Shown here: in pieces, positions 517 through 4,145 of the stretch
Layout of the letters: every line of letters begins with the position of its first letter
Numbering within the stretch: the first letter of the stretch is position 1
NCBI GenBank assembly: GCA_000004985.1
Contig: GG739196.1
DNA length: 4,145 nt
Source of the DNA: Naegleria gruberi
Taxonomy: Eukaryota
Strand: one strand, 5' to 3'
Translations under genes and position numbers: made by a program
The notes under the pieces: model-generated
Told to the model about the DNA's origin: nothing
Database searches by the model: none
The model's input: the letters and a program-made list of their open reading frames with translations, nothing else

Positions 517-1221
517 ATGATGAAACCAAGCCATTCTAACAATCAACCTGCTACTACTCCGCAATTTCTAAATGACATTCTCAAGCAATTAACCAACAAG
601 TCATCAAACAAAAATTCCTTTCCCGTTGCTCCCTCTTCAATTGTGTCGAATAACAATACAGCCACACCTTCGAATAATAGACAGGCAAGGTACTCGTCTT
701 CCAAGAATAACAATAGAAAATCAAACAATAATGTAAATAACGGACACAGAAAGAAACGAAACATTCAAAAGCCAATTAAAATCATTCAATCGAGAAGTTG
801 GTTTGGCAGTGAAGACGATTGGCTGCAGGGAAATGTTGTTCCTGTTCAAAGTCCAAGTTTCTTGTTGTTCAATCAAACTGATTCATCAGTTTTAAAACAA
901 GATTCGAATAATAAACAGAGTGTCGTTTCTGCTTTTGATTTCTTCAAGATTCAAAGGAAGGAAAGTATTGCTGAACTCTCTCAAAACAACAACTCCTCTC
1001 TTAAAACAATCATTGCCAATACAGATCAATCAGTGTGTCCAATCTGTGAAGAAGATTTGGATAAATCATACGATTCTCAGAGAATGAATTGGGTTTTGAG
1101 TGAGGCAGAGTTTTCACCTTCTCTGCAATTATATGTCCACTCAAATTGTTCCAATTCAAAGAAGAGAAAAGTTATTCCAAATCATTCATCAGTCGAAACT
1201 TTGAAAAAGGTGAAAATTTGA
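517..1221 (+). CDS. Hypothetical Asn/Ser/Thr-rich low-complexity protein, probably nuclear, with a possible C2HC-type zinc-binding motif; no family recognised
   Basis: Uninterrupted 234-codon ORF from ATG at 517 (A-rich context ctaaaATGatg) to TGA at 1219-1221. The N-terminal half is poly-N/S/T low complexity (NNNTATPSNN, SSSKNNNRKSNNNVNN). Basic patches GHRKKRNIQKPIK and SKKRKVIP resemble monopartite NLSs. The C-terminal region has C-P-I-C (about 1035-1046), then about 33 aa, then H-S-N-C (about 1138-1149). The only antisense ORFs are short and low-complexity. Confidence 0.55.
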   Translation: MMKPSHSNNQPATTPQFLNDILKQLTNKSSNKNSFPVAPSSIVSNNNTATPSNNRQARYSSSKNNNRKSNNNVNNGHRKKRNIQKPIKIIQSRSWFGSEDDWLQGNVVPVQSPSFLLFNQTDSSVLKQDSNNKQSVVSAFDFFKIQRKESIAELSQNNNSSLKTIIANTDQSVCPICEEDLDKSYDSQRMNWVLSEAEFSPSLQLYVHSNCSNSKKRKVIPNHSSVETLKKVKI

Positions 1222-1247: not shown

Positions 1248-1260
1248 ACCCGCTCATTTT
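1248..1260 (+). repeat. Left terminal inverted repeat ACCCGCTCATTTT
   Basis: Exact 13-bp reverse-complement match to 3476-3488. Similarity stops immediately outside (1247 t versus the complement of 3489, a). Confidence 0.5.
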
Positions 1261-1460
1261 TGTTGACGCTTGTTTTGACGATTTTATAGTCATGAATGAC
1301 GCCTTTGTTTATGCTTGTTAAGGTGTCATTGGGACGGTGTTGTGGACGTCAAAATGACGTTTTTTTTCGTCATTTTGACGGTGTCAATTTGGGAGTCATT
1401 AAGACGTCACAAAAAGCGTCCTCAATGACGTCTCAAAGTGTGTCTCCAATGACGTTACAG
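1261..1460 (+). repeat. Subterminal repeat region: about 12 copies of TGACG / (A)ATGACG(T) / GACGTC (ACGT core) in both orientations, with internal direct repeats
   Basis: ttgacgc (1263), ttgacga (1275), atgacgc, gggacgg, ggacgtc, aatgacgt, ttcgtcat, ttgacgg, agacgtcac, agcgtcc, atgacgtc, atgacgtt. Direct repeat pair GcGTCcTCAATGACGTc (about 1413-1431) / GtGTCtcCAATGACGTt (about 1439-1456). Second pair GGTGTCAtTGGGAcG (1322-1337) / GGTGTCAatTTGGGAg (1380-1396). Confidence 0.55.
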
Positions 1461-1540
1461 AATGATCATTAATTTTTGATAAATTGAAATTTTATTGAAC
1501 TATTCATAATTCTTACAAGTCGAAAATCTTTCATCTTGAA

Positions 1541-1613
1541 CCATTTCACATTGAGTTAAACCCAATGCTGTGATTTCACACTGTGTGAATTAGCATTGTA
1601 AAAGATTTCACAC
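1541..1613. repeat. ATTTCACA(C) direct repeats with a perfect 15-bp palindrome and flanking inverted arms, abutting the gap
   Basis: GATTTCACAC at 1572-1581 and again at 1604-1613; a related atttcacat at 1543-1551. TTCACACtGTGTGAA at 1575-1589 is a perfect palindrome. Outer arms CAATGCT (1563-1569) and AGCATTG (1592-1598) are inverted repeats. The gap begins directly after the second GATTTCACAC copy. Confidence 0.6.
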
Positions 1614-2816
1614 NNNNNNNNNNNNNNNNNNNNNNNNNNNNNNNNNNNNNNNNNNNNNNNNNNNNNNNNNNNNNNNNNNNNNNNNNNNNNNNNNNNNNNN
1701 NNNNNNNNNNNNNNNNNNNNNNNNNNNNNNNNNNNNNNNNNNNNNNNNNNNNNNNNNNNNNNNNNNNNNNNNNNNNNNNNNNNNNNNNNNNNNNNNNNNN
1801 NNNNNNNNNNNNNNNNNNNNNNNNNNNNNNNNNNNNNNNNNNNNNNNNNNNNNNNNNNNNNNNNNNNNNNNNNNNNNNNNNNNNNNNNNNNNNNNNNNNN
1901 NNNNNNNNNNNNNNNNNNNNNNNNNNNNNNNNNNNNNNNNNNNNNNNNNNNNNNNNNNNNNNNNNNNNNNNNNNNNNNNNNNNNNNNNNNNNNNNNNNNN
2001 NNNNNNNNNNNNNNNNNNNNNNNNNNNNNNNNNNNNNNNNNNNNNNNNNNNNNNNNNNNNNNNNNNNNNNNNNNNNNNNNNNNNNNNNNNNNNNNNNNNN
2101 NNNNNNNNNNNNNNNNNNNNNNNNNNNNNNNNNNNNNNNNNNNNNNNNNNNNNNNNNNNNNNNNNNNNNNNNNNNNNNNNNNNNNNNNNNNNNNNNNNNN
2201 NNNNNNNNNNNNNNNNNNNNNNNNNNNNNNNNNNNNNNNNNNNNNNNNNNNNNNNNNNNNNNNNNNNNNNNNNNNNNNNNNNNNNNNNNNNNNNNNNNNN
2301 NNNNNNNNNNNNNNNNNNNNNNNNNNNNNNNNNNNNNNNNNNNNNNNNNNNNNNNNNNNNNNNNNNNNNNNNNNNNNNNNNNNNNNNNNNNNNNNNNNNN
2401 NNNNNNNNNNNNNNNNNNNNNNNNNNNNNNNNNNNNNNNNNNNNNNNNNNNNNNNNNNNNNNNNNNNNNNNNNNNNNNNNNNNNNNNNNNNNNNNNNNNN
2501 NNNNNNNNNNNNNNNNNNNNNNNNNNNNNNNNNNNNNNNNNNNNNNNNNNNNNNNNNNNNNNNNNNNNNNNNNNNNNNNNNNNNNNNNNNNNNNNNNNNN
2601 NNNNNNNNNNNNNNNNNNNNNNNNNNNNNNNNNNNNNNNNNNNNNNNNNNNNNNNNNNNNNNNNNNNNNNNNNNNNNNNNNNNNNNNNNNNNNNNNNNNN
2701 NNNNNNNNNNNNNNNNNNNNNNNNNNNNNNNNNNNNNNNNNNNNNNNNNNNNNNNNNNNNNNNNNNNNNNNNNNNNNNNNNNNNNNNNNNNNNNNNNNNN
2801 NNNNNNNNNNNNNNNN
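1614..2816. other. Assembly/scaffold gap (1203 N)
   Basis: Unbroken run of n from 1614 to 2816. Any ORF called across it is an artefact. Confidence 0.98.
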
Positions 2817-3101
2817 ATGTATAGACCAGAAATTGGTATCTTTGGTGCCTTGTCCTATGTTGCCATCAATGCTGAATAAGACAAGTTCCTTTCTATTGTC
2901 TTTGTCAAGCTTGGCTCCATTGGTTCCCCAGCCACAATGACTAGAACTGTGCAAGCTGCTGAAGCTATTGCTCTCTACGGCTTGTTGTTGTTCCAATTCC
3001 AATTCTGATGTATTACCATATCTTCTGATAGCTTGTGTAGGTTCATTCATAGTCTTGTTGAAAAGGTAACCAGTACCACTACCGTAAATGGTATTATTCA
3101 A
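2817..3101 (-). CDS. Element-internal ORF fragment, N-terminal 95 codons visible, continuing into the gap; unknown function, candidate transposase or element accessory protein
   Basis: The minus strand is open for 95 codons from 3101 to the gap edge: LNNTIYGSGTGYLFNKTMNEPTQAIRRYGNTSELELEQQQAVESNSFSSLHSSSHCGWGTNGAKLDKDNRKELVLFSIDGNIGQGTKDTNFWSIH. All three plus-strand frames stop within about 120 nt (2817 frame: MYRPEIGIFGALSYVAINAE*). The start is unclear. The ORF-track M at 3101-3099 is TTG. An in-frame TGA sits at 3119-3117 and the first in-frame ATG at 3050-3048. An ATG at 3129-3127 opens a +1 frame (MSILTMSRGIE*, stop at 3096-3094), suggesting an intron, a frameshift or a decayed copy. 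The ORF-track label + for 1608..3101 is wrong; the translation is of the minus strand. Confidence 0.4.
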
Positions 3102-3315
3102 TTCCTCTAGACATTGTCAAAATGCTCATTGGTAAAGTGACTAAAAAACAGTGCTTGGAATCCTGTATGAGAACTGTAGAAAGTTCTTTGAAGCAGGGGA
3201 TAAAGAAAGTGATTGGAAGGCAGTTGATGAAGATGTTAAGCTTTATTTTTTAAATTATTTTCAAAAATATTCACAAGTCTGAAATACGTCACCTCCTCCT
3301 TCACTGATTTTCATC

Positions 3316-3392
3316 ATCAAAACAACACAAAACAAACAACAACAAATAAACAACACATTACAACATCAAGTAGAACACAACAGAATATCGAT
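3316..3392. repeat. CA/ACAA-rich low-complexity tract (TTGT-rich on the minus strand)
   Basis: caaaacaacacaaaacaaacaacaacaaataaacaacacattacaacatcaagtagaacacaacagaa. It is essentially G/T-free on the plus strand and lies between the right subterminal repeats and the internal ORF. Confidence 0.6.
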
Positions 3393-3419: not shown

Positions 3420-3475
3420 AAACGTCAGTGATGACGTCAAAAAAAGCGTCAATCCACCATCAGGAATGACGAAAT
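3420..3475 (-). repeat. Subterminal repeat region at the opposite end (ACGTCA, ATGACGTCA, AGCGTCAA, AATGACGAA)
   Basis: aacgtcagtgatgacgtcaaaaaaagcgtcaat...ggaatgacgaaat lies immediately inside the right TIR. It includes the perfect CRE-like palindrome TGACGTCA at 3432-3439 and the conserved 18-bp block 3435-3452 shared with 1263-1280. Confidence 0.5.
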
Positions 3476-3488
3476 AAAATGAGCGGGT
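3476..3488 (-). repeat. Right terminal inverted repeat (reverse complement ACCCGCTCATTTT)
   Basis: Exact 13-bp inverted match to 1248-1260. Confidence 0.5.
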
Positions 3489-3545: not shown

Positions 3546-4145
3546 CTAATTCCTAGAGTCAATCAACTTGTTAACCATTCTATCAAATGTTTTGTAAAAG
3601 TCCGCAACATCCACAGTCAAGTAATCTCCCAAACTGTCCTTTCTCAAATTCTTTGGATTTGAATTACTCCACAATGTATAGTCATTTCCCTTCCAAAATG
3701 TGAATTGTTCAAAGCATCTCCATCCTCTTGTTGTTACTGTATTCCAAATTTCAAGAACTGCAGAGGTTTCCTCAGGCATCCACAATGAGTGAGTCAATCC
3801 AGCTCCATGATATCCAATTAAAAAATCTGAATCGTGAACTTTTTGAATTTGTTCAACTAATTTCAAATGTGCAAAATCAACTCTTTCCACTGTGAATTTC
3901 TTGCCATATTCTCTGTGAGTCTTCATTCGATCCAACACCTCTTCTTCATTGCTAATTTGACGAGACATGAAATTGTGCTCGACTCCAAATTTCACATAAG
4001 GTCTTCGACTGATGAACAAGACACGAATCACATCACCCTTATTGATTTCTCTCTTCTTGATACCCAAACCATTCAAAATTCTATTGGCAAAATTGGCAAC
4101 GAGTGGAATTTTTGAGTGACACATAGTAGCATCATTCTCATTAAA
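3546..4145 (-). CDS. Glycosyltransferase family 61 (DUF563; EOGT-like or beta-1,2-xylosyltransferase-like), C-terminal catalytic portion, 5'-partial
   Basis: Minus-strand ORF with stop TAG at 3546-3548 (plus-strand cta). Translation contains DFLIGYHGAGLTHSLWMPEETSAVLEIW; HGAGLTH plus a downstream hydrophobic/acidic segment is the conserved GT61/EOGT core motif. Upstream of it lie VIRVLFISRR and NEEEVLDRMK, matching the family pattern of a basic stretch followed by a helper helix. The ORF-track Met at 4124 is not necessarily the start: the 21 nt upstream (4125-4145, minus frame FNENDAT) have no in-frame stop, so the frame is open to the window edge. Full GT61 proteins are much longer than 192 aa. 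Confidence 0.85.
   Translation of the reverse strand, partial: FNENDATMCHSKIPLVANFANRILNGLGIKKREINKGDVIRVLFISRRPYVKFGVEHNFMSRQISNEEEVLDRMKTHREYGKKFTVERVDFAHLKLVEQIQKVHDSDFLIGYHGAGLTHSLWMPEETSAVLEIWNTVTTRGWRCFEQFTFWKGNDYTLWSNSNPKNLRKDSLGDYLTVDVADFYKTFDRMVNKLIDSRN

Follow-up and report, generated by a model that had tools for sequence, protein, structure and literature searches.

A minus-strand open reading frame, probably of a transposon gene, in a gapped inverted-repeat-bounded element of Naegleria gruberi

The element and its genomic setting

The window, by which we mean the whole stretch of DNA that was analysed (4,145 nt), is one complete Naegleria gruberi scaffold. It carries two convergent host genes, a Pcf11-like one on the left and a GT61 glycosyltransferase gene on the right, and an element that occupies the ~85-nt spacer between them. 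Because the window is a complete small scaffold, the run of N in its middle is taken to be an assembly gap of estimated size; at that nominal size, the element, its terminal inverted repeats (TIRs) included, measures 2,239 nt (~2.24 kb). The gap falls exactly within the element, and we infer that this is the expected effect of repeated sequence on Sanger assembly. The features of the locus, apart from the open reading frame (ORF) itself, are as follows.

517-1221, plus strand: Pcf11-like ORF of the left flank, 234 aa with many N and S residues; distance from its stop to the element, 27 nt
1249..1260, plus strand: left TIR, CCCGCTCATTTT, 12/12
1263..1280, plus strand: left subterminal inverted repeat, TTGACGCTTGTTTTGACG, 18 nt, beginning 2 nt inside the left TIR
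1264..1454, both orientations: left TGACG cluster, 10 motifs
1614..2816, no strand: assembly gap, 1203 N, equal to 401 codons if its size is exact; it conceals the body of the ORF
3423..3471: right TGACG cluster, 5 motifs, the palindrome TGACGTCA among them
3435..3452, minus strand: right subterminal inverted repeat, CGTCAAAAAAAGCGTCAA, 18 nt, 23 nt inside the right TIR
3476..3487, minus strand: right TIR, CCCGCTCATTTT, 12/12
3546-4145, minus strand: GT61 (Glyco_transf_61) gene of the right flank; its stop lies 58 nt from the element

The protein of the right flank has 100% identity to N. gruberi NAEGRDRAFT_54891. The annotated 192-aa version of the latter is probably N-terminally truncated, because the frame is still open where the scaffold ends. 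In Pfam, the left-flank ORF has sub-threshold similarity to three domains, namely Pcf11 C-terminal, Clp1-interaction, and zf_PCFS4 (the best at E 1.5e-5, with 25 bits against a cut-off of 27); possibly, it is the final exon of a gene for a Pcf11-like 3'-end processing factor. A search of other assemblies for this locus or an allele of it, by exact match to the left-flank ORF and to the GT61 protein, returned no record. The two nearest relatives of the GT61 protein are encoded on metagenome contigs from ENA (L001 and L002, with 61% and 49% identity to the Naegleria protein, respectively), the GC content of which (34-38%) suggests that they presumably come from uncultured heteroloboseans. The gene neighbourhoods on these two contigs are not syntenic with the window, and neither contig carries the element.

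The ends of the element are well marked. The 12-mer CCCGCTCATTTT has exactly two matches in the window, inverted relative to each other, where 0.14 would be expected, and the two subterminal repeats, TTGACGCTTGTTTTGACG and CGTCAAAAAAAGCGTCAA, match at 17 of 18 positions (94% complementary). The motif TGACG occurs 17 times in the window against 3.0 expected, a count that was reached in none of 200 shuffles, and 15 of the 17 occurrences are located in the two arms of the element. The left cluster also holds a perfect 13-nt inverted pair, CGTCAAAATGACG and CGTCATTTTGACG, at 1347-1359 and 1368-1380. The TIRs, the subterminal repeats, and the TGACG clusters make a convincing transposon end pair, and that the element is genuine and bounded by inverted repeats is well supported; in this respect the initial annotation, which had placed the ORF inside a real TIR-bounded element, is borne out. 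The left arm, which is the 3' arm relative to the ORF, folds with z = -4.3, a strong fold that is due to the presence of the TGACG palindromes, and a search of Rfam gave no match. Several of the subterminal TGACG repeats are full palindromes of the form TGACGTC(A), which, like TGACGTCA, is the classical CRE/bZIP site.

The element is flanked by ...TCCTTTTA on the left and TTGTACAT... on the right, and a comparison of the two junctions revealed no target-site duplication; the best case is a match of 4 out of 5 (TTTTA on the left, TTGTA on the right), which is not beyond chance. Canonical cut-and-paste insertion should leave such a duplication. Three explanations can be offered for its absence: a duplication-free mode of insertion, recombination of one copy of the element with another, or a scaffold that links the left and right ends of different copies across a repeat-induced gap. 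A separate, speculative observation concerns the junctions at 1248/1249 and 3487/3488: if the outer CC/GG of the TIRs were part of the target, the empty site would read ...TTTTACCCGGGTTGTA..., and the insertion would have taken place in a CCCGGG palindrome.

The open reading frame and its 5' end

The initial annotation had drawn attention to a minus-strand frame that runs into the gap, and every detail it gave of this frame is correct, including the 95 open codons, the TGA 18 nt upstream of the TTG, and the positions of the two ATG codons. The elements of this region are listed below.

2817..3116, minus strand: visible part of the ORF, 100 open codons from stop to gap, ending ...HCGWGTNGAKLDKDNRKELVLFSIDGNIGQGTKDTNFWSIH
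3117..3119, minus strand: in-frame TGA that closes the frame upstream, 18 nt upstream of the TTG at 3101
3094..3129, minus strand: out-of-frame mini-ORF, MSILTMSRGIE followed by a stop, starting at ATG 3129 in the +1 frame
1491..1496, minus strand: AATAAA, a possible poly(A) signal, 60-115 nt past the possible stops of the ORF

From the TTG to the gap the ORF comprises 95 codons. It is the only long frame within the element, as had been claimed: the next longest open stretches in the two arms have 64, 63, and 58 codons. Because the gap cuts the ORF, its open length is 100 codons at the least. When the 671-nt arm was randomised, one or another of the six frames stayed open for 100 codons or more in 207 of 5000 mononucleotide shuffles and in 509 of 5000 first-order Markov simulations. 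Codon usage was scored with a model trained on the two flanking genes and two genes of a related metagenome contig. The ORF scored 0.035 bits per codon, whereas chance open frames of at least 80 codons scored -0.069 +/- 0.084, with ~13% of them attaining the value of the ORF; four real genes, each left out of training, scored between -0.01 and 0.18. With p 0.04-0.10 for the open length and p~0.13 for the codon score (given that the frame is open), both measures lean towards coding, though only marginally, and neither is decisive.

On the far side of the gap, each of the three minus-strand frames is closed by a stop no more than 19 codons past the gap edge (1556..1613). If the nominal gap length is used to fix the frame, this stop is the TGA at 1610-1608, which gives a protein of 497 aa from the TTG. 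The AATAAA beyond it is statistically non-significant given the AT-rich DNA. The start region of the ORF lies 360-440 nt inside the right TIR, and this position, together with the stops shortly past the gap, makes the element a one-gene element of typical autonomous size; the layout is that of a one-gene autonomous element. On the opposite strand, facing the leader of the ORF, there is a 45-codon open stretch (...YENCRKFFEAGDKESDWKAVDEDVKLYFLNYFQKYSQV and a stop, 3145-3282, plus strand) that looks protein-like by eye and has no match in Pfam.

The 5' end is ambiguous, in agreement with the initial annotation. The first in-frame ATG is at 3050 (MNEPTQ..., with A at -3), and no in-frame ATG precedes codon 23 of the open stretch, while the ATG at 3129 belongs to the mini-ORF. 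Deletion of one base between ~3116 and 3097 would fuse this mini-ORF to the main frame, and an extra base, introduced by genuine mutation or by a Sanger error ~300 nt from the contig end, may explain the offset. The short intron near 3095-3130 that had been suggested instead is unlikely: the only GT donor downstream of ATG 3129 is a poor one (GTCTAG at 3112), and the shortest intron that would restore the frame is 34 nt. There are 139 mechanically feasible GT-AG joins that lead into the frame, some of them from an upstream ATG at 3317, and this number is too large to be informative. That ATG opens an upstream leader ORF (MMKISEGGGDVFQTCEYF and a stop, 3261-3317, minus strand), and several GT donors within the leader ORF could be joined to acceptors at 3105-3107 with the frame preserved; one such product would read MMKISEGGEELNNT.... 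Initiation at ATG 3050 is the simplest reading of the 5' end.

Homology searches and comparison with known element families

The 100-aa peptide had no match in Pfam at E <= 1 and none among PDB sequences at E <= 10, and its sole match in PHROGs was non-significant (E 0.39); ten other open stretches from both arms had no match in Pfam either. A word-indexed search of 5.8 billion proteins returned no match at E <= 10, with or without the post-gap peptides appended. Scanning 1.84 billion cluster representatives with HMMER gave four matches with E from 1e-5 to 7e-4; we judged these to be spurious, a composition or repeat artefact, because the proteins are internally repetitive and were aligned in five short stretches each. 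At least one annotated N. gruberi protein of the same scaffold is present in the protein database, and no entry there shares the residues of the peptide, from which we infer that the ORF has no annotated N. gruberi paralogue. An AlphaFold2 model built from the single sequence of the visible peptide reached a pLDDT of 36 and is unusable. The inability of the initial annotation to place the ORF in a family was confirmed by all of these searches, none of which produced a credible match. Its further proposal, a transposase of a new lineage, is unsupported: only ~100 N-terminal codons are visible, and the N-termini of transposases and other element proteins are commonly without detectable homology. 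For the same reason, and because the catalytic core would lie in the gap, the lack of matches is uninformative with respect to that core.

Other copies of the element were sought in three ways. A scan of viral contigs with the TIR pattern, and one of metagenome contigs with the TIR plus the subterminal motif, gave chance pattern matches only, with no extended similarity, and a protein search of metagenome contigs yielded no second copy. Viral and metagenome contigs made up the whole scope of these scans. In the literature on N. gruberi transposon families we found no description of the element.

In its general plan the element resembles a class II TIR transposon: short perfect TIRs, bidirectional subterminal arrays, a single ORF of ~1.5 kb in ~2.2 kb total, and insertion into an intergenic spacer. 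It differs in having no target-site duplication and no recognisable transposase domain in the sequenced part. Among the individual families, piggyBac (IFP2) has 5'-CCC...GGG-3' termini, a 13-nt TIR, a ~19-nt subterminal repeat separated from the TIR by unequal spacers of 3 and 31 nt, and a length of ~2.5 kb with one ORF, the N-terminus of which is unconserved. The present element is similar in that its TIR of 12-13 nt starts with CCC, its subterminal repeat measures 18 nt, and its spacers are 2 and 23 nt. However, it is flanked by TTTA and TTGT and not by TTAA on both sides, so that the defining TTAA duplication is absent; furthermore, the asymmetry of the spacers is reversed relative to the ORF, and the visible peptide has no DDE_Tnp_1_7 match, the core being in the gap.

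The TA duplication of Tc1/mariner elements is not seen here either (TA on the left, TT on the right). As for PIF/Harbinger, the TWA feature reads TTA on the left versus TTG on the right, the visible part has no DDE_Tnp_4 match, and 2.24 kb leaves little room for a second (Myb-like) ORF. Elements of the hAT, P, and CACTA types carry many short bidirectional subterminal motifs near short TIRs, and the N. gruberi element does so too. On the other hand, its termini are CCCGC and not YARNG or CACTA, and there is no 8-bp or 3-bp duplication. The Pfam hAT, THAP, and Transposase_21 models gave no match to the visible peptide at E <= 1; the hAT C-terminal domain would be in the gap. The peptide ...FSIDGNIGQGTKDTNFWSIH loosely resembles the D...H spacing at the first catalytic Asp of hAT transposases, a resemblance that is non-significant. 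With the deciding catalytic domain in the gap, no assignment more precise than that of an unclassified TIR element can be made.

Interpretation of the frame

In our preferred reading, to which we assign a probability of about 0.5, the frame represents the 5' (N-terminal) ~80-105 codons of the only gene carried by a class II TIR transposon of ~2.24 kb, and this gene probably encodes a transposase. The element would have inserted into the ~85-nt spacer between the convergent Pcf11-like and GT61 glycosyltransferase genes. Read along the minus strand, it would begin with a TIR and a TGACG block (3487-3423), continue with a leader of ~300 nt and the start of the ORF, located either at 3050 or, if one base is corrected, at 3129, and then pass through the gap, where the body of the ORF would lie. 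A stop at ~1556-1610 would be followed by a short 3' region and by the second TGACG block and TIR (1454-1249). The protein, of ~500 aa if the gap estimate is right, would most probably be the transposase of the element; recognition of the subterminal TGACG repeats would fall to its N-terminal region, and the unsequenced part would encode its catalytic core. The ends of the element, the open frame with its placement and strand, and the lack of homologues are established, whereas translation of the frame, a transposase as its product, and binding of that product to the repeats are putative. Against this reading stand the lack of homologues, the pLDDT of 36, the weak statistics in favour of coding, the missing duplication, the lack of a second copy among the contigs scanned, and the fact that an ATG is found only at codon 23.

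Several of these points would be accommodated if the frame were non-functional, either open by chance or left over from decay, and the copy itself were dead or non-autonomous, with the TGA at 3119 and the offset of ATG 3129 as signs of decay. At least 100 codons are open in 4-10% of the randomised arms, the codon score is not significantly above that of chance open frames, the searches found no homologues whatever, the pLDDT of the model is 36, and the best-placed ATG is out of frame. Yet the frame is clearly the longest in the arms (100 codons versus 64 or fewer) and, being cut by the gap, may be much longer; its position and orientation suit a one-gene element, and the 2.2 kb of the whole far exceeds the size of typical non-autonomous miniature elements. 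The perfect 12/12 TIRs and the 17/18 subterminal repeat argue against an old, decayed copy, and we regard a non-functional frame as possible and distinctly less probable than a transposon gene. One could also dispense with the transposon and view the ORF as an ordinary host gene that happens to be lineage-specific (an orphan), and regard both the inverted repeats and the TGACG clusters as regulatory or coincidental. The N. gruberi genome is gene-dense, and the spacing suits a gene for ~500 aa with flanks of ~400 nt; the missing duplication, the failure to find another copy in viral and metagenome contigs, and the identity of TGACGTCA with the classical CRE/bZIP site point in the same direction. 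This reading, however, leaves a perfect GC-rich 12-mer, inverted and placed exactly at the outer edges of the two TGACG clusters, and an 18-nt inverted repeat just inside each 12-mer; such mirror symmetry would not be expected between the promoter and the terminator of a single gene, which makes a host gene improbable.

The remaining candidates take the missing duplication at face value. Under one of them, which we consider a doubtful proposition, the element is a transposon whose insertion leaves no duplication. The protein of ~500 aa would be either a divergent nuclease of the TnpB/Fanzor type or a member of an undescribed transposase or recombinase lineage; the TGACG(TCA) arrays would be the predicted binding sites, and the target would be a CCCGGG-like palindrome, to which the outer CC/GG of the TIR would belong. 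A narrower version, very unlikely in our estimation, has an IS607-like element, likewise without duplication, in which the ORF encodes an RNA-guided nuclease of the Fanzor2/TnpB type like NlovFz2 and the 3' arm encodes the guide (omega) RNA. The NlovFz2 elements of Naegleria lovaniensis are ~2.0 kb long, with one ORF of 495 aa located ~350-450 nt inside the left end (PMC10432273), and the 96-aa N-terminal segment of the protein is disordered and unique to NlovFz2, with 5'-CCG as the TAM (PMC10432273). The N. gruberi element is reminiscent of these: the genus is the same, element size and ORF length are similar (2.24 kb and ~497 aa at the nominal gap), the N-terminal ~100 aa are likewise an orphan segment, there is no target-site duplication, and the upstream junction on the ORF strand, ...CCCG/CTCATTTT, contains CCG, a coincidence that was spotted post hoc. 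In contrast, the visible parts of the N. gruberi element share no protein or DNA similarity with NlovFz2. A Smith-Waterman comparison of the visible peptide with full-length NlovFz2 scored 30, against a shuffle mean of 31, and when the arms were compared by blastn with the NlovFz2 left end and omega RNA, the best match was an arm-internal stretch of 31 nt (77%, E = 0.026). The RuvC and zinc-finger core of a TnpB-type protein would fall within the gap. The post-gap peptides lack a recognisable RuvC-III motif, as well as the D-x-D-x-N-A-A-x-N-I motif typical of TnpB C-termini, and the 3' non-coding arm is longer than in NlovFz2 (360 nt vs ~140-165 nt). TGACG arrays and perfect TIRs, in turn, are not seen in the NlovFz2 locus. 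Our literature search found no paper linking Fanzor with N. gruberi, and the name "gruberi" is absent from the accessible part of the Fanzor catalogue. With regard to the 31-nt stretch, AAACAAAGGCGTCATTCATGAC (1282-1311, minus strand) resembles the right-end junction of the N. lovaniensis Fanzor2, AAATAAAGGCG/ACATTCTTCATC; its E value was computed in a tiny search space, and the likeness is probably due to chance, because it is arm-internal and not at the end of the arm.

The frame as the probable beginning of a transposon gene remains our preferred reading. The present gain is one unclassified, incompletely assembled transposon copy, and 100 unconserved N-terminal residues cannot carry the claim of a new transposase lineage. 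To our knowledge, the mobile elements of heteroloboseans have been little described. If the protein obtained after closure of the gap proved to be an intact transposase, the locus would represent a compact element in a free-living heterolobosean, and possibly a recently active one, as the perfect TIRs suggest although no second copy was found. In that case, an explanation would be worth seeking both for the missing duplication and for the arrays of CRE-like TGACGTCA.
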